42,791 bases of DNA from Actinomycetes bacterium. GTDB lineage: Bacteria; Actinomycetota; Thermoleophilia; Gaiellales; Gaiellaceae. Below are positions 1 to 37,020 of the stretch, piece after piece. Each line of letters begins with the position of its first letter. The stretch's first letter is position 1. The notes under the pieces were generated by a model. It had not been told where the DNA came from. It worked only from the letters and a program-made list of their open reading frames with translations, and ran no database searches. The stretch is taken from positions 1 through 42,791 of the forward strand of contig JAUVPB010000001.1 of the NCBI GenBank assembly GCA_030598925.1, given 5' to 3'. The position numbers and the translations under genes were made by a program.

Positions 1-1494
1 AACGTCGTGCTGATCGACGCGGCCGAGGGAATCGTCAAGTGCGACATCGGCATCAAGGACGGGCGCATCGCGGGCATCGGCAAGGCAGGCAACCCGGACA
101 TCATGGATGGCGTCCACCCGGATCTGGTGGTCGGCGCGGGCACCGACGTTCGATCGGCCGAGGGCATGATCGCGACTGCGGGTGGAATCGATGTCCACGT
201 GCACTTCGACAGCGCGGGGCTCTGCGAAGAGGCCATCTCGGCCGGCGTCACGACGATGATCGGCGGCGGTCTCGGGCCGGTCACGGTGGGGATCTGCTCG
301 TCCGGAACCGAAAACCTCCACCGGATGCTGCAGGCGGCCGAGGCCTTTCCGCTCAACTTCGGCTTTCTCTCGAACGGCAGCGCAAACAGAGTTGAGCCGC
401 TGCTGGAGCAGGTCGCCGCCGGGGCGATCGGACTCAAGATCCACGAGGACTGGGGCGCCATGCCGGCGGTCATCCATGCGGCGCTCGACGCGGCAGATCA
501 GACCGACGTTCAGGTTCAGATCCACACCGACACGCTGAACGAGTCCGGCTTCTTCGAACGGACGCTCGACGCGATCGGTGGCCGCACCATTCACACCTAC
601 CACTCGGAGGGAGCGGGCGGCGGCCACGCGCCAGACATCATCCGCGTTTCAGGTGAGGCGAACTGCCTCCCCTCGTCGACGAACCCAACGAATCCGTTCA
701 CGGTCAACACCTTCGACGAGCACCTCGACATGGTGATGGTCTGCCATCACCTCAACCCGCGCGTGCCCGAAGATGTCTCGTTCGCCGAGTCGCGTATCCG
801 GCGCGAGACGATCGCGGCCGAGGATGTCCTCCACGATCTTGGGGCGATCAGCGTCATGGGCTCCGATTCGCAGGGAATGGGAAGGATCGGCGAGACGATC
901 GCCCGCACCTGGCAGGTGGCGGCCCACATGAAGGGCGAGCGCGGATCGCTGCCGGAGGACAACGGCTCCGGCAACGACAACACACGCGTGAAGCGCTACA
1001 TCGCGAAGTACACATTGAACGCCGCGAGGATCTTCGGGATCGATCACGAGATCGGCTCGCTCGAGCAGGGCAAGCTCGCTGACATCGTGCTCTGGGAGCC
1101 GAAGTTCTTCGGAATCAAGCCCGAGGTGGTCTTCAAGGGCGGCTTCCCAGCCTGGTCGGTGATGGGCGAGTCGAACGCCTCGCTGATGACCTGTGAGCCG
1201 CTCACGTATCGGCCGCAGTGGGGCGCGTTCGGTCGTGCCAAGGAAGCACTGTCCGTCACGTTCATGTCCGGCGCCGCTATCGATGCGGGGATACCCGAGC
1301 GGCTGGGGCTCCGCAGCCGCGCAGTCGCGCCGAAGGGCACTCGGACGCTGCAGAAGAAGGATCTCGTGTGGAACGACGCGCTGCCCGACATCACGGTCGA
1401 CCCTGAGACCTACCGCGTCGAGGTCGACGGTGAGCTCTGCACCTGCGAGCCGCTCGAGCGCGTTCCGCTCGGGCCACTGTACGTGCTCAAGTAG
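1..1494 (+). CDS. ureC: Urease alpha subunit, 5'-partial (reading frame is open to base 1)
   Basis: Translation [38 protein letters not shown]...IDVHVHF...MVCHHLN...[10 protein letters not shown] carries the classic UreC nickel-site motifs. About 75 N-terminal residues are missing because the frame continues upstream of the window. ureG follows directly. Confidence 0.95.
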
Positions 1495-2124
1495 ATGGCG
1501 ACGGCAGTTCGCATCGGGATCGGTGGGCCGGTCGGCTCCGGCAAGACGCGCCTGGTCGAGCGCCTGCTGCCCCTTCTTCAGTTACGGGGCTTCGTCAGCG
1601 CGGTCATCACCAACGACCTCGTCACGACCGAGGACGCGGAGCGGCTCCAGCAGGGTGGGCTGATCGCCCCGGAGCTCGTCGTCGGGGTCGAGACCGGGGC
1701 GTGCCCCCACACCGCGATCCGCGAGGACCCCTCGGCCAACCTCGAGGTCGCCGAGCAGCTCGAGGCCCTCCACGCGCTCGACGTACTGCTCATCGAGTCT
1801 GGCGGCGACAACCTCGCATCGACGTTCAGCTCCGATCTCGTGGATCACTGGCTGTACGTGATCGACGTGGCCGCTGGTGACGACATCCCGCGCAAGCGTG
1901 GCCTGGGCATCACGCAGGCTGATCTTCTCGTCGTGAACAAGGTCGACCTGGCCCCGCACGTTGGTGCCGATCTCGAACGGATGCGCCGCGATCTCGAGGT
2001 CGTGCGACCCGAGCGGCCCACCGTATTTACCGATCTCCGCAACGGTGGTGTCGAGGACGTTCTCGACCATCTGCTGCGGGCCGTGCTATTCGACGACGCT
2101 GCCGCGCCTGCGCAGCCCGCCTGA
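1495..2124 (+). CDS. ureG: Urease accessory GTPase UreG
   Basis: P-loop GGPVGSGKT, the CPH metal motif in [13 protein letters not shown], and NKVDL. The ATG directly abuts the ureC TAG stop. Confidence 0.95.
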
Positions 2125-2137
2125 GGCTGACGCGACC

Positions 2138-2698
2138 GTGCGCTGCGCGTGGGCTCCGCTCGACGATCCTTCCTATCTCGCGTACCACGACGAGGAGTGG
2201 GGTGTTCCCGTTCACGACGACCGCCGGCTCTTTGAGATGCTCACGCTCGAAGGCGCCCAGGCCGGTCTCTCGTGGGTGACCATTCTGCGCAAACGCGAGG
2301 GCTACCGCAGCGCGTTCGCCGGGTTCGACCCTGCGACCGTGGCCAGGTTCGGGGCGGCTGAGCGAGAGCGTCTGCTGTCGAATTCCGGCATCGTCAGGAA
2401 CCGGCTGAAGGTGGAGTCGACGATCGCGAACGCCCAGGCGGTTCTCGACGTGCAGGAGGAGTTCGGGAGCCTCGACGCGTATCTCTGGAGCTTCGTCGAC
2501 GGCGTGCCGATCCAGAATCGCTGGCGCGAACTCAGCGAGCTGCCCGCCAAGACCGATCTCTCCACCCGGATGAGCAAGGAGCTCAAGGGCCGTGGGTTCC
2601 GTTTCGTCGGCCCGACGACGGCCTACGCGTTCATGCAGGCGGCCGGGTTCGTTAACGATCACGTTGTGGACTGCTTCCGGCATGCAGAGCTCGCGTAG
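2138..2698 (+). CDS. tag: DNA-3-methyladenine glycosylase I
   Basis: YHDEEWGVPVHDDRRLFEMLTLEGAQAGLSWVTILRKREGYR is the Tag signature. Zinc-snap residues are present (N-terminal Cys, His in YHDEEWG, C-terminal H..C in NDHVVDCFRH). I chose the GTG at 2138, in frame with track ORF 1961-2698, because it lies after the ureG stop and has GAGG about 10 nt upstream. Confidence 0.88.
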   Translation: MRCAWAPLDDPSYLAYHDEEWGVPVHDDRRLFEMLTLEGAQAGLSWVTILRKREGYRSAFAGFDPATVARFGAAERERLLSNSGIVRNRLKVESTIANAQAVLDVQEEFGSLDAYLWSFVDGVPIQNRWRELSELPAKTDLSTRMSKELKGRGFRFVGPTTAYAFMQAAGFVNDHVVDCFRHAELA

Positions 2699-2734
2699 CC
2701 CGCGGGCCGGGTCCGAGGCCGAGGAGCCAAGATC

Positions 2735-3562
2735 GTGAGTGGCTTGCTCGAGCTGACGCTTGCGCGGCGCGGCGACGGTCGAACGGCGGTCGTCGAACGG
2801 CGGCAGCGGTTCCCGTTGCGGATGACGGTGCCCATGTACCTCGATCCAGCTGTTCCGGATCTGCCGTTTATCTACGTTCAGAATCCGACCGGCGGCCTCT
2901 TCCCAGAGGACGACTTGCTCGTGTCGCTTACGGTCGAGCGCGAGGCGCGCGTACATCTCACGACGCAGTCGGCTACGAAGGTCTACGCCGGGCCGGGCGC
3001 AGACGCGCGTCAGTCCACGTGTGTCCGGCTTGCCGACGGCGCCTACGCCGAGCTGATTCCCGACACGCTGATTCCGCACGCGGGTGCGCGCGTCGAGCAG
3101 GAGATTGCGGTCGAGCTCGGCGAGAATGCCGCGTTCGTCGCGTGCGAGCTGTTGGCACCCGGAAGGCACCTCGAGCGCGAGCGCTTCGCGTACGAGCGTG
3201 TGCGCCTCACGACCTCGGTGCGGGATCTCAGCGGTGCCGAGATCTGTGTCGACGCTCTCGAGCTCGAGCCGTCGCGCCGCTCGCCGCGCGCCCGCGGTGT
3301 CCTGGGCCAGCACGCCTATCTCGGGACGCTGATTGCAGTCGCGCCTCACCTCGACGTCGAGCGAGCCGCGACATCCATCGATCGCGAGTTGGCGACAGAC
3401 ACCTCTGTGGTCGCCGGGGCCGGTGCGCTGCCGAAGTCAGCCGGAGTCAGCGTGCGCGTGCTCGCCGGCCGGGCAGCCGATGCCCGACGCGCCGTCGATG
3501 CCGCGTGGGCGCGGCTGCGGCAAGAGCTCCTAGGCGCAGCGCCGCCGCGGCGGCGGAAGTAG
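2735..3562 (+). CDS. ureD: Urease accessory protein UreD/UreH
   Basis: The pattern ...RQRFPLRMTVPMYLD...IYVQNPTGGLFPEDDL...HLTTQSATKVY is typical of UreD, and the gene sits in a urease context. GTG start. Confidence 0.85.
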   Translation: MSGLLELTLARRGDGRTAVVERRQRFPLRMTVPMYLDPAVPDLPFIYVQNPTGGLFPEDDLLVSLTVEREARVHLTTQSATKVYAGPGADARQSTCVRLADGAYAELIPDTLIPHAGARVEQEIAVELGENAAFVACELLAPGRHLERERFAYERVRLTTSVRDLSGAEICVDALELEPSRRSPRARGVLGQHAYLGTLIAVAPHLDVERAATSIDRELATDTSVVAGAGALPKSAGVSVRVLAGRAADARRAVDAAWARLRQELLGAAPPRRRK

Positions 3563-3563
3563 C

Positions 3564-4115
3564 GTGCCGGCTGTGGACAGCCCGCGCTCGACCGACTCAC
3601 TCCGGTGTCGCGAGATCCTCGGAGATCGCGCGGATCCGGCGTTCATGGGGCGCCGAGCAGATCCGGTATTCGTCGCCGCGGCCGACGCGTCGAAGCGTCG
3701 CTTGCGGCTCGTCTCGGAGGCGGGGCTCGACGGGGCGGTCGATCTCCCGAGGGGTTCGTTCCTGCGCGACGGGGCTGTGCTCGCTGACGATGGTTCGACG
3801 ATCGTTGTTGTGGCGCGAACGCCCGAGGAGGTGATGCGCGTGACCATCAGCGCGCACCTCGACTCCGAGGCACGCGTCGCGGCGGCACTACGGATCGGCC
3901 ACGCATTCGGCAATCAACACGTGCCGGCGGAGGTCGTCGGAGACGAGCTTGTGGTGCCGATCACAACGAGCCGCGCCGTCGCGACACGCACCCTCGATGG
4001 GCTGCAGCTAGAGGGCGTCGAAGCGCAGTTCGAACAGCGCCCGCTCGCGCGTATGCGCCCCCTCGCGGGCCACGTGCACGAGCCGTCCGACGACACCACG
4101 GAACACTCGCACTAG
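3564..4115 (+). CDS. ureE: Urease accessory metallochaperone UreE (start codon uncertain)
   Basis: [31 protein letters not shown] and [14 protein letters not shown] match the UreE core (K. aerogenes VKSRVKV..LPRGLLLRGGDVL and HLGNRHVP). The C-terminal tail is His-containing ([14 protein letters not shown]). Confidence 0.75.
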
Positions 4116-9802: not shown

Positions 9803-12800
9803 ATGAAACGGATCGGTGTCGACGTTGGCCGAACGTTCACGGACCTGATCCTGGTCGACGAAGAGTCCGGGAGCGTGACTGTCGACAAGGTTCCGTCCAC
9901 GCCCGATGATCCGGCCCGCGGGACGGTCGAGGGTATCCGCGAGTTGTGCTCGAAGGCGGGCGTCGCGCTCTCGGATGTCGACAATCTGCTGCATGGCACG
10001 ACCGTCGCGACCAACATCGCGCTGACGCACACGGGCGCCGAGGTTGGGATGCTCACGACCGACGGGTTCCGGGACATTCTCCACATCGCACGCCACAAGA
10101 AGCCGTACAACTTCTCGCTTCAGCAGGAGCTGCCGTGGCAGTCGCGACCGCTGGTCAAGCGCCGCCACCGGCTGACGGTCAAAGAGCGCGTGACGGTGCC
10201 ACATGGCGACGTGCTCGAACCGCTCGACGAGAAGGAGGTCCGCGAGCGCGTCCGCGAGCTCAAAGCGGCCGGCGTCGAGGCGATATCGGTCTGTCTGCTC
10301 CACTCGTACTTGAACCCGGCCCACGAGCAGCGAGTCAAGGAGATCGTGCTCGAGGAGTTTCCAGAGGCCTATCTGTCGGTGTCGCATGAGGTCCTGCCGC
10401 TGTACCGCGAGTTCGAGCGATTCTCCACGGTGTGCCTGAACGCGTACGTCGGCCCGAAGGTGGCGACGTACGTGGGGCGCTTCGATCAGGCCGTGCGCGA
10501 AGAAGGCTTCAAGCATGGAATCCAGCTCATGCAGTCGTCGGGTGGTATGGCCACGGTCGAGTCGGCCACTCAGCGACCGGTCAACATGCTGATGTCGGGC
10601 CCGGTCGCTGGTCTGATCGGAGGCATCTGGGCGGGCAAGCTGTCCGGCTACGACAGCGTTGTCACGCTCGACATCGGCGGCACGTCGGCCGACATCGGCG
10701 TCGCAGCTGACGGACAGATGCGGATGCGGCACCTGCTCGACACGAAGGTTGGCGACTACCAGGCGATGGTCCCGATGGTCGACATCGACACGATCGGCGC
10801 CGGCGGCGGCTCGATCGCGTACGTCGACGAGGGCGGCGTGTTCCGGGTGGGTCCACAGTCGGCGGGCGCCGAGCCCGGACCCGCCTGTTACGGGCGCGGT
10901 GGCGCCGACGCGACATCGACCGACGCGCAGCTGCTGCTCGGTCGCTTGCGACCCGATCGAGGCTTGCTGGGCGGCAACATGCAGCTCGACGTTGGCCTGG
11001 CCGGAACGGCGATGAAGGGCGTCGCGGACGAGCTCGATATGAGCGTCGAAGAGGCCGCGCTCGGCGCGCTGCAGGTGCAGATGTACGGGATGACACAGGC
11101 GATCGAGGTCAACTCGGTGCGCCGTGGCTACGACCCGCGTGACTTCACGCTCGTTGCGGCCGGCGGCGCGGGTCCGCTCTTCGCGTGCGACATCGCCCTC
11201 GAGCTCGAGATCCCTCGCGTGCTCGTTCCACCCTACCCCGGCATCGTGGCAGCGACCGGCCTGCTGGCGACCGACCTTCAGCATGAGTTCGTGGCGACGG
11301 AACGCCATCAGCTCAAGGAGCTCGATCATGCTCGGCTCGGCACCCGCTTCGACGAGCTCGTCGCCCAGGCCGTTGAGCGGCTCGAAGCGGACAACGTGCC
11401 CGACGACAGGCGCATCATCCGTCGCCTCGCCGATTGCCGATATGCGGGCCAGGGCTATGAAGTGCGTTTCGACGCCCCGGCCGGGGCCGTCAGCGACGAT
11501 TGGGTGATGCAGCTGAAGGAGGCGTTCCACCGCGCGCACGAGGCCGAGTACGGACAGCGCTTCGATGCGGAAATCGAGATCATCAACATCCGCGCCGTCG
11601 GTATCGGCCGGGTCACGGAGCTGCGGCTGAGCGAGGTCGCGACCGCCAGCGGCGACGTTGCACGGGCACAGATCCTGGAGCGCGACGTGACGTTTGACGT
11701 CGATGGCGTAGCCGAGCGGCGCCTGACGCCCTTCTACGAGCGCGACCGCCTGCGGGCGGGTGACACGATCGATGGACCGGCGGTGATCGAGCAGTACGAC
11801 ACGACGACCGTGATTCCCCCCGGCCTCTCAGCCGAGATCGACAAGTACGGCAACATCGTGATCGATTGCACGACCCGGGCCAAGAGCGCTGAGGAGCGGA
11901 GCGCTGCGCTGGCGACGCCAATCCTCATGCGCGTGATCGGCGGTGCCCTCAATTCGATCGCGAAGGAGATGGCCGGCGTTCTCTACCGGATGAGCTACTC
12001 GTCGATCATCCGCGAGTCGGAGGATCTCGGAGCCGGACTCTTTGACAAGGACGGGAGCAACCTGGCCGAATCAGACTCGACGCCGATGTTTATGGGCGCC
12101 ATGCCGAAGATCGTCAAGGGCGTGATCAAGACGCTCGGCGACGACATCCAGGAGGGCGACGTCATCCTCCACAACGATCCCTACCTCGGTGCCACGCACT
12201 CGCCCGACGTCGCGATCGTGATCCCGATCTTCCACGGCGGTGAGCTCGTCGGCTTCTCGGGTGCCTCGGCCCACCTGCTCGATATCGGCGGCGCTTACCC
12301 GGGCCTCGCGATCGATCTGGTCGACAACTGGTCGGAGGGCAACATCTACCGCGCCGTCAAGCTCGCCGAGGGCGGGGTCTGGCAGGACAAGCTGTGGCAG
12401 CACATCCTCGAGAACACGCGGACACCGACACACAACGCCGGCGACATCCAGGCGATGATCGCGGCATGTGAGCTCGCGCGCACCCGCTACGTCGAGCTGA
12501 TCGAGCGCTACGGGAAGGAAACGGTTCTCGGAGCAGCGGCGGGCTGGCTCGACTATTCGGAGCGGATGCTCCGCCAGGAGATCGCCAAGGTCCCCGACGG
12601 TCGTTACGAGACCGAGATCGGCTGGCTCGACGACGATGGCGTCAACCGCGGCAAGATGCTCCCTGTCCAGGTTGCGGTCGAGATCAAGGGCGACGAGGTC
12701 ACGTACGACCTCACCGGCTCGAGCGACGAGGTTCCGACTGGATTCAACGTCCCGTTCGAGGGTACGACGGTCTCGGCGATGACGTTCATTACCCGCATGA

Positions 12801-13681
12801 TCTTCCTCGACGAGGAGGCCTACCCGGTCTTCGTCCCCCAGAACGAGGGAATGTTGCGTCCCGTGCACGTGATCGCGCCGAAGGGATCGATCTTCAACCC
12901 GAATTTCCCACGCGCGTGCTTCGCGCGGTTCTGCCAGGCGCAGCGCGCAGTAGACCTGGCGCAGCGCTGCCTCGCTCCCGTTATTCCGGAGCAGATAGCA
13001 GCCGGCAGCTCGGCTCACCTGCACTTCATCTCCTACTCCGGGTTCGACGACGAGGAAGGCGAGTACTGGGTGTACCTCGAGGTCGACGAGGGCTCCTACG
13101 GTGGCCGGCACGGGCGCGATGGACTCGACTCGGTCGACTCACTGATCGCCAACACGCGCAACAACCCGATCGAGGAGCTCGAGTGGCGCTTCCCGATGCG
13201 TACAGAGCGCTACGAGCTCCGCGACGAGCCCGCGCCACCCGGGAAATGGCGCGGCGGTATCGGAATAGTCCGCGTGAACAGGTTTCTCGAGGACTCGATC
13301 GTCACGTGCGAAGGCGAACGCCACGACGGCGACCCGCCCTGGGGGATCTTCGGCGGCCACGACGGTCTTAACGCCGGGCTACGCCTGCTCGGATCAGACG
13401 GCAGCGTCGAGCACTGGCCCGCGAAGTTCAGCGGCAAGACGCTGCCGGCCGACAGCGCCATCGAGATCACGGTGCCTAGCTCGGGCGGCTACGGAGACCC
13501 ACTCGAGCGCGAGCCCGAGCAGGTCGTCTCGGACATTCTCGACGGGTTCACGACGCTGGAGCAGGCGCGCGATGACTACGGCATCGTGATCGACGAGGAC
13601 TCGATGGCTGTCGACGTGACCGCGACGGAGGAGCGCCGAGCGCGCTTGCGCGCCGAGTCGGAGGCCGTCGCGACGACATGA
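9803..13681 (+). CDS. Fused hydantoinase/oxoprolinase A+B (ATP-dependent 5-oxoprolinase / N-methylhydantoinase / lactamase family), 1292 aa
   Basis: The N-terminus MKRIGVDVGRTFTDLILVD..., ..LDIGGTSADI.. and ..IDTIGAGGGS.. form an ASKHA-fold HyuA. The C-terminal half (from about residue 700: ..ILMRVIGGALNSIAKEM...NDPYLGATHSPD..) is HyuB. RBS GGTGGAG lies 7 nt upstream. Confidence 0.9.
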   Translation: MKRIGVDVGRTFTDLILVDEESGSVTVDKVPSTPDDPARGTVEGIRELCSKAGVALSDVDNLLHGTTVATNIALTHTGAEVGMLTTDGFRDILHIARHKKPYNFSLQQELPWQSRPLVKRRHRLTVKERVTVPHGDVLEPLDEKEVRERVRELKAAGVEAISVCLLHSYLNPAHEQRVKEIVLEEFPEAYLSVSHEVLPLYREFERFSTVCLNAYVGPKVATYVGRFDQAVREEGFKHGIQLMQSSGGMATVESATQRPVNMLMSGPVAGLIGGIWAGKLSGYDSVVTLDIGGTSADIGVAADGQMRMRHLLDTKVGDYQAMVPMVDIDTIGAGGGSIAYVDEGGVFRVGPQSAGAEPGPACYGRGGADATSTDAQLLLGRLRPDRGLLGGNMQLDVGLAGTAMKGVADELDMSVEEAALGALQVQMYGMTQAIEVNSVRRGYDPRDFTLVAAGGAGPLFACDIALELEIPRVLVPPYPGIVAATGLLATDLQHEFVATERHQLKELDHARLGTRFDELVAQAVERLEADNVPDDRRIIRRLADCRYAGQGYEVRFDAPAGAVSDDWVMQLKEAFHRAHEAEYGQRFDAEIEIINIRAVGIGRVTELRLSEVATASGDVARAQILERDVTFDVDGVAERRLTPFYERDRLRAGDTIDGPAVIEQYDTTTVIPPGLSAEIDKYGNIVIDCTTRAKSAEERSAALATPILMRVIGGALNSIAKEMAGVLYRMSYSSIIRESEDLGAGLFDKDGSNLAESDSTPMFMGAMPKIVKGVIKTLGDDIQEGDVILHNDPYLGATHSPDVAIVIPIFHGGELVGFSGASAHLLDIGGAYPGLAIDLVDNWSEGNIYRAVKLAEGGVWQDKLWQHILENTRTPTHNAGDIQAMIAACELARTRYVELIERYGKETVLGAAAGWLDYSERMLRQEIAKVPDGRYETEIGWLDDDGVNRGKMLPVQVAVEIKGDEVTYDLTGSSDEVPTGFNVPFEGTTVSAMTFITRMIFLDEEAYPVFVPQNEGMLRPVHVIAPKGSIFNPNFPRACFARFCQAQRAVDLAQRCLAPVIPEQIAAGSSAHLHFISYSGFDDEEGEYWVYLEVDEGSYGGRHGRDGLDSVDSLIANTRNNPIEELEWRFPMRTERYELRDEPAPPGKWRGGIGIVRVNRFLEDSIVTCEGERHDGDPPWGIFGGHDGLNAGLRLLGSDGSVEHWPAKFSGKTLPADSAIEITVPSSGGYGDPLEREPEQVVSDILDGFTTLEQARDDYGIVIDEDSMAVDVTATEERRARLRAESEAVATT

Positions 13682-27429: not shown

Positions 27430-28118
27430 GTGACCTCCGATGGATTGTCGGCCGTTGAGCAGAGGTTGCGGTTGTTCATCTACGAGTTCGTGATCGAGCG
27501 CGACGGTGCCCGACTCTCAATGAGATCGCGGTCGAGGGCGAGCTAACGCCGTTCGAGGCGCAGATCGTGCTCGAGCAACTCGCCGATCTTCACGCCGCGA
27601 TCGTTCTCTCCCCGGGTTCGCCAAACGTGTGGCTAGCGGATCCGTTTGCCGCGCTTCCGACTCCGCATCCGGTATACGCCGACGGACACTGCTGGTTTGG
27701 CATGTGCGTCTGGGACGCACTGGCGATCCTGGCCGTGACGGGGCTCGACGGACGCGCGCCCACTCTTTGCCCGATCTCCGGCGAGGCGCTCGAGCTCCAG
27801 GTGCAGGACGGCGACCTCGTTCGCAAGGACGGCGTCGTGCACTTCGCCGTTCCTGCAGCCGACTGGTGGCGCGACGTTGGATTCACCTGAGCAACCATGC
27901 AGCTCTTCTGGTCGGAAGACGACGTGGACGAATGGGTGGCGCGCAGCGGTCATTCGAAGGGCGCGGTGTTTGGCGTGGAGCAACTCTGGCCTCTCGCGCA
28001 GCGCTGGTACGACGATCGACGTGAGCTCGAGTGGCGGCGAAAAAGTGCGCGCGAGCGCCAGGCGATCCTCGATGACGTTGGTCTCGTGGGTCCGTTCTGG
28101 CAGGTCGGCTCTCGGTAG
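27430..28118 (+). pseudogene. Alkylmercury-lyase (MerB) family gene, disrupted as literally written: a 1-nt frameshift near 27510 and an in-frame TGA at 27888-27890 (possible selenocysteine codon)
   Basis: Three collinear pieces:
- Frame 1: VTSDGLSAVEQRLRLFIYEFVIERDGA.
- Frame 0: PTLNEIAVEGELTPFEAQIVLEQLADLH...GMCVWDALAIL...LCPISGEALEL...WWRDVGFT, then TGA.
- Frame 0 continues after the TGA: ATMQLFWSEDDVDEWVARSG...
These match MerB CALDTL (Cys96/Asp99), HCAATGAPVSL and [15 protein letters not shown]..EDW. The track shows the pieces as ORFs 27325-27546, 27567-27890 and 27897-28118. Confidence 0.7.
27895..27927 (+). other. Candidate bacterial SECIS-like hairpin downstream of the TGA at 27888
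   Basis: Upper stem tcttct (27904-27909) pairs with ggaaga (27914-27919), 5 Watson-Crick pairs plus 1 GU. It is capped by the tetraloop GGTC (27910-27913), which starts 20 nt after the TGA. An interrupted lower helix 27895-27902 / 27920-27927 is possible. Folded by eye only. Confidence 0.35.
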
Positions 28119-34813: not shown

Positions 34814-35893
34814 ATGACGCGAGCAACCGGCACCCTCCTGTTCGTTGCGATCGCTATGGTCGTCGCGGTGGCCGCGTGTGGCGGGAGCGACGAGGCGGCA
34901 CCCGAAACGCAGCCGCCGGCGCCTGCCGAAGAGGCCGTTTCGCCGCAGGCGGACGAGCAGGGCTCCGCGACCGACGAACAGGGCTCCGCGACCGACCAGC
35001 AAGGCTCCGGGAACGCCGAAACTCTGCAGGGCCTGCTCGATGCCGTCCCGGGTGAAGATGTGGCGATCGTGTGGGGCACGGGCGACCTCGAGCCCGGCGA
35101 GATCCGTCTCAGCTTTCTCGTCGTTGACGATGCGGGCGAGTTGACGCAGGCGCCGACTGCGGAGTTCGTTGTGGGCAAGGTGGAAGTCGACGAGGCGGGC
35201 GAGGCCGAGATCGACGCTGAGCAGATTCTGGCCACTCCGGCGGCGACGGGCACGGCCTCACTCGAATCGGTCGATGCCGGACCACACGACCATGGTGATG
35301 GGGGGCTGGAGCCACACGATCACATCGATGCCACCGACCTGTATGTCGCGCAGCTCGAGCTCTCCGAGCCCGGTCTCTACTGGGCCGTCGCCACACCGAG
35401 CGAGGGCAACATCCAGGCCTTCGGCACCTTCGAGGTGCGTGCGGAAGGGATCGCGCCGAGCGTGGGGGACGAGGCGATTGCCTCTGACACGCCCACTCTC
35501 GACGACGGACCGGCAGAAACCTTGACCACGCTCGAGCCACCGGCGGAGGGACTGCTGAGGCACTCGATCGCCGAGTCGATTGCCGACGGTGCGCCGTTCG
35601 TCGTGATCTTCGCGACGCCGGCCTTCTGCCAAACGCGGGTGTGCGGGCCCGTGGTTGAGACGGTCGATCAGGTTCGCGCGCTGTATGAGGCCGACGGCAT
35701 CCGGTTCATTCAGGTCGAGATCTACACCGACAACGATCCGAACAACGGCGTCAACGAGTGGGTTGCGGAGTGGGGCTTGCCGAGCGAGCCGTGGACGTTC
35801 CTCGTGGACGCTAGCGGGATCATCCAGGGGCGGTTCGAGGGCGCGATGTCAGCTCGAGAGCTGACAGAGGCGATCGAGCGCACGCTCCTTTAG
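34814..35893 (+). CDS. Secreted lipoprotein with a His-rich segment and a C-terminal thioredoxin-fold (TlpA/Sco-like) domain
   Basis: Lipobox LLFVAIAMVVAVAACGG. HDHGDGGLEPHDH. C-terminus PFVVIFATPAFCQTRVCGP...WTFLVDASGIIQGRFEG resembles redoxin/Sco-type folds, with a CxxxxC pair. Confidence 0.68.
   Translation: MTRATGTLLFVAIAMVVAVAACGGSDEAAPETQPPAPAEEAVSPQADEQGSATDEQGSATDQQGSGNAETLQGLLDAVPGEDVAIVWGTGDLEPGEIRLSFLVVDDAGELTQAPTAEFVVGKVEVDEAGEAEIDAEQILATPAATGTASLESVDAGPHDHGDGGLEPHDHIDATDLYVAQLELSEPGLYWAVATPSEGNIQAFGTFEVRAEGIAPSVGDEAIASDTPTLDDGPAETLTTLEPPAEGLLRHSIAESIADGAPFVVIFATPAFCQTRVCGPVVETVDQVRALYEADGIRFIQVEIYTDNDPNNGVNEWVAEWGLPSEPWTFLVDASGIIQGRFEGAMSARELTEAIERTLL
34952..35014 (+). repeat. 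21-bp tandem repeat (2 near-identical copies plus 1 degenerate) inside the lipoprotein gene
   Basis: gacgagcagggctccgcgacc / gacgaacagggctccgcgacc / gaccagcaaggctccgggaac, encoding DEQGSAT DEQGSAT DQQGSGN. Confidence 0.85.
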
Positions 35894-35991
35894 CAGCCCC
35901 TGGGCGTCCCTCCCTCAGGTTGCGGGCGACAGAGAGAGCACAACCTGGCGTAACCGCGCTCGCTGTTCGCCCACGGGGTAGCCTTGACGCG

Positions 35992-37020
35992 ATGAAAGCT
36001 ACCTCCGGGTCGCTGGGACTGACGGTTGGCGGAGGCTGTGCGGCCAAGTTTCCCGCGAAACGTCTCGAAGAGCTGCTCAAGGGCTTCGTACCGGTCGAGG
36101 CTGAGGACCTGCTCGTCGGGCTTGCCCCGGCCGACGACGCCGCCGTGTACCGACTCGACGACTCGCGTGCGATCGTCTTCACGATCGACTTCTTTCCGCC
36201 GATGGTCGACGATCCCGAGGCGTTCGGCGCGATCGCCGCAACGAACGCACTCAATGATGTCTTCGCGATGGGCGCGTCGCCACTGCTCGCGCTCTCAGTG
36301 GCGGCGTTTCCAGAGGACATATCGGACGACACCGTCGCGACCGTGTTTGCTGCCGCTGACGCCAAGGTGCGCGAGGCTGGCGGGATCCTGGCGGGCGGTC
36401 ATACGATCCGCGACGAGCAGGCGAAGTACGGCCTGGCAGTCGTCGGTACGGCGCCGCCCGAGGCGATCTGGCGCAAGTCGTCAGCCGCGGCGGGCGACGT
36501 CCTGCTGCTCACGAAACCGCTTGGTACAGGCATCGTTCTTGCGGCGGCCAACCGGAACACGATCGATTCGCGGTTCCGGGACGGGGCGGTCGAGCAGATG
36601 ACCGAGCTCAATGCACGAGCAGCAGAGATTCTGCGCCCCCGCGGACCGAGTGCGGCAACCGACGTCACCGGTTTTGGTCTGTTCGGGCACACCATGGAGA
36701 TGGCTGAGCGCAGCCAGGTGAAGATTGTTCTCGACGCCGAGGCGCTGCCGCCGATGCCAGGCGCCCTCGAGGCCGCAAGCGCCGGCATCCGTACGGGAGG
36801 CGACGCCCTGAACCGCGAGCTCGTGGCGGGTCGCGTCGACACGGAGGGGCTGGACGAGCGAATCGACATCATCGGCCACGATCCCCAGACGGCCGGCGGG
36901 CTCCTCGTGGCGGTGGCGCCCGACCGCGTAGCCGTCCTGGAGGCGACATTCGCTTCCGAGGGGCTCTTCCTCGCCTGCGTTGGCAGGGTCGAGGACGGCT
37001 CGGGCGTTGTGGTTCGCTAG
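35992..37020 (+). CDS. selD: Selenide, water dikinase (selenophosphate synthetase), Cys-type
   Basis: N-terminus LTVGGGCAAKFPAKRLEELL matches E. coli SelD HGAGCGCKISPKVLE (Cys17/Lys20). Also ..DDAAVY.., ..DFFPPMVDDP..FG.IAATNALNDVFAMG.. and ..ATDVTGFGL.GH. (the PurM-like AIR-synthase fold). Start taken at the ATG at 35992. Confidence 0.9.
   Translation: MKATSGSLGLTVGGGCAAKFPAKRLEELLKGFVPVEAEDLLVGLAPADDAAVYRLDDSRAIVFTIDFFPPMVDDPEAFGAIAATNALNDVFAMGASPLLALSVAAFPEDISDDTVATVFAAADAKVREAGGILAGGHTIRDEQAKYGLAVVGTAPPEAIWRKSSAAAGDVLLLTKPLGTGIVLAAANRNTIDSRFRDGAVEQMTELNARAAEILRPRGPSAATDVTGFGLFGHTMEMAERSQVKIVLDAEALPPMPGALEAASAGIRTGGDALNRELVAGRVDTEGLDERIDIIGHDPQTAGGLLVAVAPDRVAVLEATFASEGLFLACVGRVEDGSGVVVR

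Follow-up and report, generated by a model that had tools for sequence, protein, structure and literature searches.

Reading frame and family membership of the MerB-like gene

The stretch of DNA analyzed here (hereafter, the window; 42,791 nt, the numbering of which is used throughout) carries on its + strand a gene related to merB, the gene for organomercurial lyase (EC 4.99.1.2), with a TGA codon within its reading frame (Table 1). Two open reading frames (ORFs), 27567-27890 (107 aa) and 27897-28118 (73 aa), lie in one frame and are split only by the TGA at 27888-27890 and the 2 sense codons GCA and ACC. This arrangement, borne out by translation of the ORFs, had been pointed out in a preliminary description of the window, in which the TGA was proposed to encode selenocysteine (Sec) in place of the second catalytic cysteine of MerB.

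When read through with Cys put at the TGA, the product matches the Pfam MerB (alkylmercury lyase) profile (PF03243) with an E-value of 8.1e-26 and 90.9 bits (cutoff of 27). The match, from position 1 to position 125 of the 126 in the profile, is unbroken across the TGA, and the 73-aa tail alone matches positions 88-125 (E-value of 5.8e-4). In a phmmer comparison with PDB sequences, the UGA column fell on the catalytic Cys in MerB2 (5c17: ...GGTC-KQIHYF) as well as on the first Cys of the SFCC motif in MerB of plasmid R831b (1s6l), which is Cys159, so that the proposed location of the TGA at the second catalytic Cys holds. The upstream C-x-x-D aligns with Cys96 and Asp99 of MerB. The signature residues of MerB are Cys96, Asp99, Cys117, and Cys159 (PMC8261052). 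Equivalents of the first 3 are present and conserved, that of Cys117 in at least 93% of the members, and position 159 is UGA (Sec) rather than Cys. Judging from the sequence, a Sec at this position would be analogous in function to Cys159, even though it is not literally a Cys.

Table 1. Features of the MerB-like gene and of selD in the window.
Feature	Position	Strand	Basis
5' segment, GTG and first 25 codons, N-terminal winged-helix-like region (VTSDGLSAVEQRLRLFIYEFVIER[D])	27430..27503	+	Frame-1 translation
1-nt deletion (frameshift) relative to orthologues	27503..27504	+	DNA alignment with L001 and L002
Main coding segment, RCPTLNEIA...WWRDVGFT	27504..27887	+	Frame-3 translation, Pfam MerB match, PDB alignments
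Catalytic Cys codon (MerB Cys96 equivalent)	27705-27707	+	MerB/MerB2 alignments, conserved C..WDALG
Asp codon (MerB Asp99 equivalent)	27714-27716	+	MerB/MerB2 alignments
Structural Cys codon (MerB Cys117 equivalent)	27768-27770	+	MerB/MerB2 alignments, conserved column
In-frame UGA, predicted Sec codon, residue 154 of the frame-corrected protein (MerB Cys159)	27888..27890	+	
Post-UGA segment, 75 codons, ATMQLFWSEDD...GPFWQVGSR; TAG stop at 28116-28118	27891..28118	+	Pfam match, relatives, dN/dS
Bacterial SECIS-type hairpin; stem 27904-27909/27914-27919, loop GGUC 27910-27913	27903..27920	+	
selD (selenophosphate synthetase), Cys form GGGCAAK	35920..37020	+	TIGR00476, 330 bits (cutoff of 125)

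Conservation of the TGA column and of a SECIS-type hairpin

A scan of 1 genome per GTDB species (185,579 species genomes) revealed 504 related loci, the best 80 of which were taken for comparison; 79 of these, each from a different GTDB species-representative genome, were usable, the remaining one (L021) being frameshifted. In all 79 loci, the UGA column is occupied by TGA, never by TAA or TAG, and 69-91 in-frame codons with the consensus ...T-U-ATxLLFRSEEHVxxW...GAV...W.LA..WY.DR...W.R....E.Q.....GL.G.FW follow before a true stop is reached. Because the same TGA column recurs in every one of these independent genome loci, a chance origin can be ruled far out. The carriers, distributed over about 10 phyla, are metagenome-assembled genomes (MAGs) mostly of Gemmatimonadota, with further members in Actinomycetota (Gaiellaceae, Thermoleophilia, and Acidimicrobiia), Acidobacteriota, Chloroflexota, Dormibacterota, Marinimicrobia, Planctomycetota (Phycisphaerae), Armatimonadota, and Myxococcota (Archangium), as well as one gammaproteobacterium. 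Complete chromosomes are available for the carriers OZ252293.1 and CP070815.1.

Predicted proteins display the same break. Among 5.8 billion of them, we found approximately 40 close homologues of 148-153 aa, all ending with ...WWRDIGFT directly before the TGA of the window, and searches with the 73-aa tail against 1.84 billion representatives (phmmer) yielded 356 matches, mostly orphan ORFs of approximately 70 aa that stem from Sec-type genes split in two. Among the top 150 tail matches, about 16 are full-length proteins of 200-240 aa matching at their C-terminus. The residue at the UGA column of the full-length relatives is Cys in about 15 of 18 (the others have 1 Trp, 1 Tyr, and 1 Arg), as exemplified by the 220-aa relative P0043, which reads through with Cys; the question raised earlier, whether homologues have Cys or TGA at this column, is thus answered by both. 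The relative with Trp, P0078 (231 aa, presumably with a TGG codon), retains the LLFRSEED motif and looks like a Sec-type gene with either a recent TGA-to-TGG change or a base-call error.

The sequence following the TGA evolves as a coding sequence. Over codons 14-60 after the TGA, 9 close locus pairs were compared by their ratio of nonsynonymous to synonymous substitution rates (dN/dS; Nei-Gojobori). Eight of them have values of 0.11-0.31, much like those of the 45 codons upstream, and the ninth pair, which is nearly identical, yielded about 0.65. Hence, the family-like sequence that had been noticed over 73 codons past the stop is genuine, with the Pfam match continuing and purifying selection acting on it, and the neutral divergence proposed as a check is not what these codons display. 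The same data bear on the possibility that the TGA is a genuine stop, leaving a truncated MerB-like protein of 153 aa and a separate small gene or a non-coding remnant. Gene callers do report a 153-aa protein and a 73-aa ORF in loci L081-L083, and members are deposited in GenBank as truncated forms of 148-174 aa under the name 'organomercurial lyase' (e.g., MEN8145403.1, 148 aa, and MEE8367384.1, 174 aa). However, such a product would be devoid of the Cys159 equivalent along with the final third of the MerB domain, all 79 loci have conserved the downstream frame, the stop is always TGA, and the full-length Cys forms are single proteins. Furthermore, the ATG at the third codon after the TGA does not represent a conserved separate start, being shared by no more than 29 of 79 distinct sequences, including that of the window. 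We consider a genuine stop at this position hardly credible.

The hairpin with a GGUC loop reported to follow the TGA closely is indeed present, its loop starting 19 nt after the TGA; we take this loop to resemble the apex of the E. coli fdhF element. With the U of UGA numbered as position 1, the family consensus is CUCUUCC-GGUC-GGAAGAG, the 2 arms extending from C16 to C22 and from G27 to G33. This 7-bp stem is paired in 91.7% of cells, as compared to 48-63% in slid registers, and displays two-sided changes at 17-32 (UA to CG in 10 sequences), 19-30 (UA to CG in 4 and UG in 17), and 16-33 (CG to GC in 3 and GU in 1). None of 500 shuffles attained the observed covariation score or percentage paired, so the covariation analysis that had been suggested turned out in favor of the hairpin.

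The constraint is also visible at the codon level. Third-codon positions 18, 21, 24, and 27 (4 of the 6 inside the hairpin) are 94-100% conserved, compared to 37-47% outside; Phe is always encoded by TTC, Ser almost always by TCG, and the intervening Arg always by CGG except for the TGG of the window, the TTC-CGG-TCG codons being kept even in the low-GC Marinimicrobia. The resulting F-R-S-E motif is invariant in the Sec forms, save for the Trp of the window, and variable in the Cys forms (e.g., FRTE, FLSE, FHEN, and FCSK). The motif is conserved in the Sec forms because its codons build the stem-loop, providing a clean case of RNA and protein co-evolution in which an RNA element shapes the protein sequence.

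As a stem-loop located directly 3' of the UGA inside the ORF, the family element agrees with the published criteria for the bacterial selenocysteine insertion sequence (SECIS) derived from the bSECISearch consensus (PMC13188914), with a 4-nt loop starting with GG, an upper stem of 7 bp, a spacing of 19 nt, and a median folding energy of -8.8 kcal/mol, most members being below -7.5 kcal/mol; the hairpin of the window has the same geometry. It differs from the bacterial SECIS in having neither a bulged U nor a supported lower helix. A lower helix between columns 8-12 and 36-40, suggested by folds of the window and L002 sequences, was rejected because it is only 59% paired across the family. The Rfam scan of the window returned no family covering the hairpin.

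The hairpin also bears on whether the UGA might be read through without Sec, either as near-cognate Trp, Cys, or Arg or following a lineage-specific reassignment, or might be a sequencing error for TGC or TGT. The Trp of P0078, with LFRSEE kept next to it, could be taken to speak for such decoding, but a GG-loop hairpin at SECIS spacing combined with the Cys/Sec pairing among relatives is the signature of SelB-dependent recoding. Moreover, the TGA is found in 79 independent assemblies from about 10 phyla, and it is the normal stop of 12 out of 24 Pfam-supported genes of the window, indicating that the genetic code is standard. Read-through without Sec or a sequencing error is accordingly highly improbable. 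By contrast, the conserved TGA, selection on the downstream codons, Cys-containing relatives, alignment with Cys159, the covarying hairpin, and selD, previously noted 8 kb downstream and recovered here at that distance (Table 1), all support Sec. As far as can be judged from comparative data of this kind, recoding of the UGA as Sec at the second catalytic Cys of MerB, rather than truncation, is strongly supported.

State of the window copy

The true start of the gene, overlooked in the preliminary description, is GTG 27430, which is in a different frame from the main ORF. The product of 27430..27503 aligns with the N-termini of homologues (MTxxExRxRLFIYEFV), and in L002, a syntenic orthologue, the codon aligned with this GTG is the ATG. 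Due to the loss of 1 nt at 27503/27504 (GCGA-CGGTGCCCGAC in the window, ACGAGCGCTGCCCGAC in L002, and ACGATCGCTGCCCGAC in L001), the first 25 codons do not share the frame of the remaining gene: in frame 1, VTSDGLSAVEQRLRLFIYEFVIERDG... runs into TAA 27544-27546, and frame 3 resumes at ...RCPTLNEIAVEG...; homologues are uninterrupted here (...FIYEFVxxxDRCPTLNEIA...).

Several observations weigh against the locus encoding a Sec-dependent MerB-like lyase. The first concern the window copy, which is frameshifted, the deletion breaking the N-terminal domain. It is also the only one of 80 sequences with T at 27909 (SECIS position 22), a CGG-to-TGG change that replaces Arg with Trp at an otherwise invariant codon. 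Its hairpin, with a C-C mismatch at the base of the stem (27903/27920) and a U-G closing pair where the family has C-G, reaches on its own only -4.8 kcal/mol, well short of the family median, and only 4 of the 79 relatives are as weak; in a 48-nt context, the window sequence folds with -12.7 kcal/mol. The second group concerns the selenium machinery, of which selD is the sole gene in the window. Neither selA nor selB was found within the 42.8 kb, where the large ORFs scanned belong to ordinary metabolic or housekeeping families or to no family. ARAGORN and Rfam detected no tRNA (hence no tRNA-Sec, selC) and no Rfam match in the window, and no tRNA-Sec was found in the flanks of 60 related loci (L001-L060). 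The third group concerns function. The protein falls far short of the NCBIfam MerB equivalogs (NF009710, 28.9 versus 193 bits; NF033555, 24.8 versus 200 bits). No mer genes (merA, merR, merT, or merP) are located beside the gene, and all-versus-all clustering of ORFs revealed no conserved neighborhood, with no flanking family present in more than 13 of the 80 loci, these 13 being all close relatives. Finally, the AlphaFold model of the Cys-type relative P0043 is of low confidence, with a predicted local distance difference test score (pLDDT) of 66.

Because of this score, the P0043 model was used for fold assignment alone and not for the geometry of the active site; MerB and MerB2 alone make up its top 11 PDB matches (E-values of 6e-7 to 1e-4). 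In the N-terminal approximately 65 residues of the model, the Foldseek matches that come after MerB and MerB2 are winged-helix DNA-binding domains (DtxR/IdeR, LexA, and GntR). The N-terminal domain of the clade resembles a winged helix-turn-helix in this low-confidence model.

The copy in this assembly may be mis-assembled or recently inactivated, a matter separate from the reading of the family as a whole. One serious contender, although not the one that we favor, is that the window carries a young pseudogene with a real deletion, in which translation from GTG 27430 ends at TAA 27544-27546 without yielding the complete enzyme; the assignment of Sec to the family would hold in this case as well. 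The frameshift is evident relative to both L001 and L002, and 5 neighboring genes align to L002 as single full-length matches with no frameshift, indicating that the assembly is not generally error-ridden. However, the single indel is the only interruption of an otherwise well-conserved reading frame, and the deviations, at only 2 of the 30 highly conserved columns, do not exceed the range of the family. The lone U at SECIS position 22, in a hairpin that is among the weakest, and the Ala replacing the conserved Gly of the WDALG motif would be consistent with decay, yet the U-G closing pair still pairs. Furthermore, indel errors do occur in such data, as illustrated by 2 related public assemblies, L081 and L082 (ENA ERZ25067216 and ERZ25072039, respectively), which contain the same MerB-like protein: in L082, the M16 peptidase gene is split, that for FMN_red is split or truncated, and that for HtrA is truncated, whereas all are intact in L081. 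L021 (a Chloroflexales MAG) and P0041, likewise of this clade, are also frameshifted inside the MerB domain, their translations diverging after ...SVHAAS and ...DALGILVVADV, respectively.

Taking the evidence on both sides into account, the locus very probably represents a distinct and widespread clade of the MerB family with a UGA-encoded Sec at the Cys159 site, presumably an organometal lyase acting like MerB, the window copy of which is mis-assembled or recently inactivated.

Relationship to known families, possible function, and genomic surroundings

SaoL (NF040728) is a MerB-like selenoprotein with a CU dipeptide, the Sec162 of which aligned to Cys159, encoded within the nine-gene sao (Selenocysteine-Assisted Organometallic) locus of 52 anaerobic species (bioRxiv 10.1101/2022.07.06.499078, Haft & Gwadz). 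The earlier statement that no characterized Sec-dependent lyase was known stands insofar as SaoL is biochemically uncharacterized, but this protein had already been described bioinformatically. The window protein shares with SaoL the Pfam MerB domain, Sec at the Cys159 column, equivalents of Cys96 and Asp99, and database entries cut at the UGA. Unlike SaoL, it scores only 30.8 bits against the SaoL model (cutoff of 140), has a Thr-Sec-Ala motif (F-T-U-A in the window and the family) instead of Cys-Sec, and contains approximately 73 rather than approximately 50 residues after the Sec. It is not associated with a sao operon or a conserved neighborhood, and genes like those of sao, such as one for an ABC transporter, are absent next to the window gene as well as in the related loci. 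Whereas SaoL is restricted to anaerobes, mostly Firmicutes, the clade is found mainly in soil and marine Gemmatimonadota, Actinomycetota, Acidobacteriota, Chloroflexota, and Marinimicrobia.

With MerB (R831b; PDB 1S6L and 3F0P) and MerB2 (5C17), its best PDB matches by both sequence and fold, the window protein has in common the Pfam domain, Cys96-x-x-Asp99, Cys117, and a third ligand at the Cys159 column. It differs from MerB by the presence of Sec for Cys159, the lack of Cys160, an identity of only approximately 20%, the location of its gene outside a mer operon, and a C-terminal extension of approximately 35 aa beyond the Pfam domain. With scores far below the cutoffs for SaoL and the MerB equivalogs, the window protein represents a distinct subfamily, and no NCBIfam model claims it. 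In the review tables from 2022 and 2026, the SaoL family is the sole PF03243 entry and the present clade is absent; the GOS 2008, ISME J 2016, deep-Sep, and BSepDB papers make no mention of MerB in their main texts. Thus, SaoL is apparently the only MerB-like selenoprotein in the literature covered, which includes neither the J Bacteriol (2023) publication on SaoL nor Haft & Tolstoy 2025. The clade appears to be a second family of MerB-type selenoproteins, with a wider distribution than SaoL, and its novelty is moderate: the widespread Sec-type subfamily is new, but the use of Sec in the MerB family was already known.

In MerB, Cys96 and Cys159 bind Hg, and Asp99 donates a proton. Following the established bacterial mechanism, SelB carrying Sec-tRNA(Sec) would be recruited by the in-ORF hairpin, with its loop 19 nt after the UGA, and Sec would be inserted instead of termination, producing a protein of approximately 229 aa. 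This protein would adopt the MerB fold, with an active-site set of Cys93, Asp96, and Sec154 and a buried Cys115 (Cys117 in MerB). By analogy with MerB, the metal of the organometallic substrate, which is most likely an organomercurial, would be held by the Cys and Sec, and the Asp would protonate the carbon, leading to cleavage of the carbon-metal bond. The enzyme would act on its own, not being encoded in a mer or sao operon.

Since mer genes are missing from its surroundings and its sequence has diverged from MerB, the protein may also act on other organometals or serve in metal binding. Genuine recoding combined with a function other than organomercurial cleavage, namely activity on a different organometal(loid) or no more than the binding or trafficking of a soft metal, is plausible, although we lean away from it. 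The absence of adjoining merA, merR, merT, and merP and of a conserved neighborhood in the 80 loci, the score of 28.9 bits against 193 on the MerB equivalog, and the C-terminal extension are all consistent with a different substrate, but all 4 MerB signature residues are conserved (Cys159 as Sec), and about half of the merB-carrying genomes also lack merA (PMC8261052). The authors describing SaoL have likewise argued for a possible shift of substrate caused by Sec at the metal site, and, as summarized in the same study, MerB can bind other metals and becomes copper-binding upon a single residue change (bioRxiv 10.1101/2022.07.06.499078).

Published merB surveys (PMC8261052 and PMC12484752) require Cys96, Asp99, and Cys159 in the predicted proteins and would discard the present clade because its predicted proteins end before the Cys159 position. 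One of these surveys lists MerB in one Gemmatimonadetes genome and in no Acidobacteria genome (PMC8261052), unlike the present clade, in which these 2 groups dominate. Rather speculatively, the clade could represent a selenium-dependent organometal lyase of aerobic soil and ocean bacteria, which degrades methylmercury or another natural organometal(loid) independently of mer, has been missed by merB surveys, and probably gained its Sec independently of SaoL. The matter is relevant to mercury ecology, where the enzymes of mer-independent methylmercury demethylation are an open problem, and to selenoprotein catalogues, in that the clade has no NCBIfam model and is stored in GenBank as truncated proteins. 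As an annotation rule, MerB-like proteins ending with ...GFT followed by TGA should be extended.

The MerB-like gene is monocistronic and located between a divergent gene for an M16 peptidase and a convergent nadE (NAD synthase). The window is syntenic over approximately 20 kb with L002 (a Gaiellaceae MAG) and L081 (a 1.25-Mb ENA contig), in both of which the orthologues of the gene are intact. The shared genes encode methylmalonyl-CoA mutase, HtrA, a sigma factor, an NTP-transferase, FMN reductase, the M16 peptidase, the MerB-like protein, NadE, a class V aminotransferase, and acetyl-CoA synthetase (63-82% amino acid identity). In the 13 loci mentioned above (a Gemmatimonadales subset, within L013-L079), a gene for a family III CoA-transferase-like protein is convergent to, and slightly overlaps, the 3' end of the MerB-like gene; this arrangement is confined to that sub-lineage.

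A second gene of the window had been thought to display the same Cys-to-TGA pattern, but two scans for in-frame TGA guided by the G+C content at third codon positions recovered only gene ends and antisense ORFs. A same-frame junction at 1492-1494 was also considered as a recoded TGA and discarded, the codon being the TAG between ureC and ureG. This TAG directly abuts the ATG of ureG in the same frame (1492-1497), within a urease cluster spanning 7-4115 and comprising ureC (its N-terminus partial at the window edge), ureG, ureD, and ureE.

Directly upstream of selD, 34814-35893 (+) encodes a predicted lipoprotein of 359 aa with no Pfam match, the C-terminal part of which is thioredoxin- or DsbE-like (weak TIGR00385 match) and contains the motif FCQTRVCGP. 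In L081, a 365-aa gene occupies the same place with no selD after it, selD not being syntenic in this contig. Elsewhere in the window, an ORF of 1292 aa at 9803-13681 (+) corresponds to a fusion of caprolactamase/hydantoinase alpha-like (residues 3-688) and beta-like (residues 706-1280) parts.

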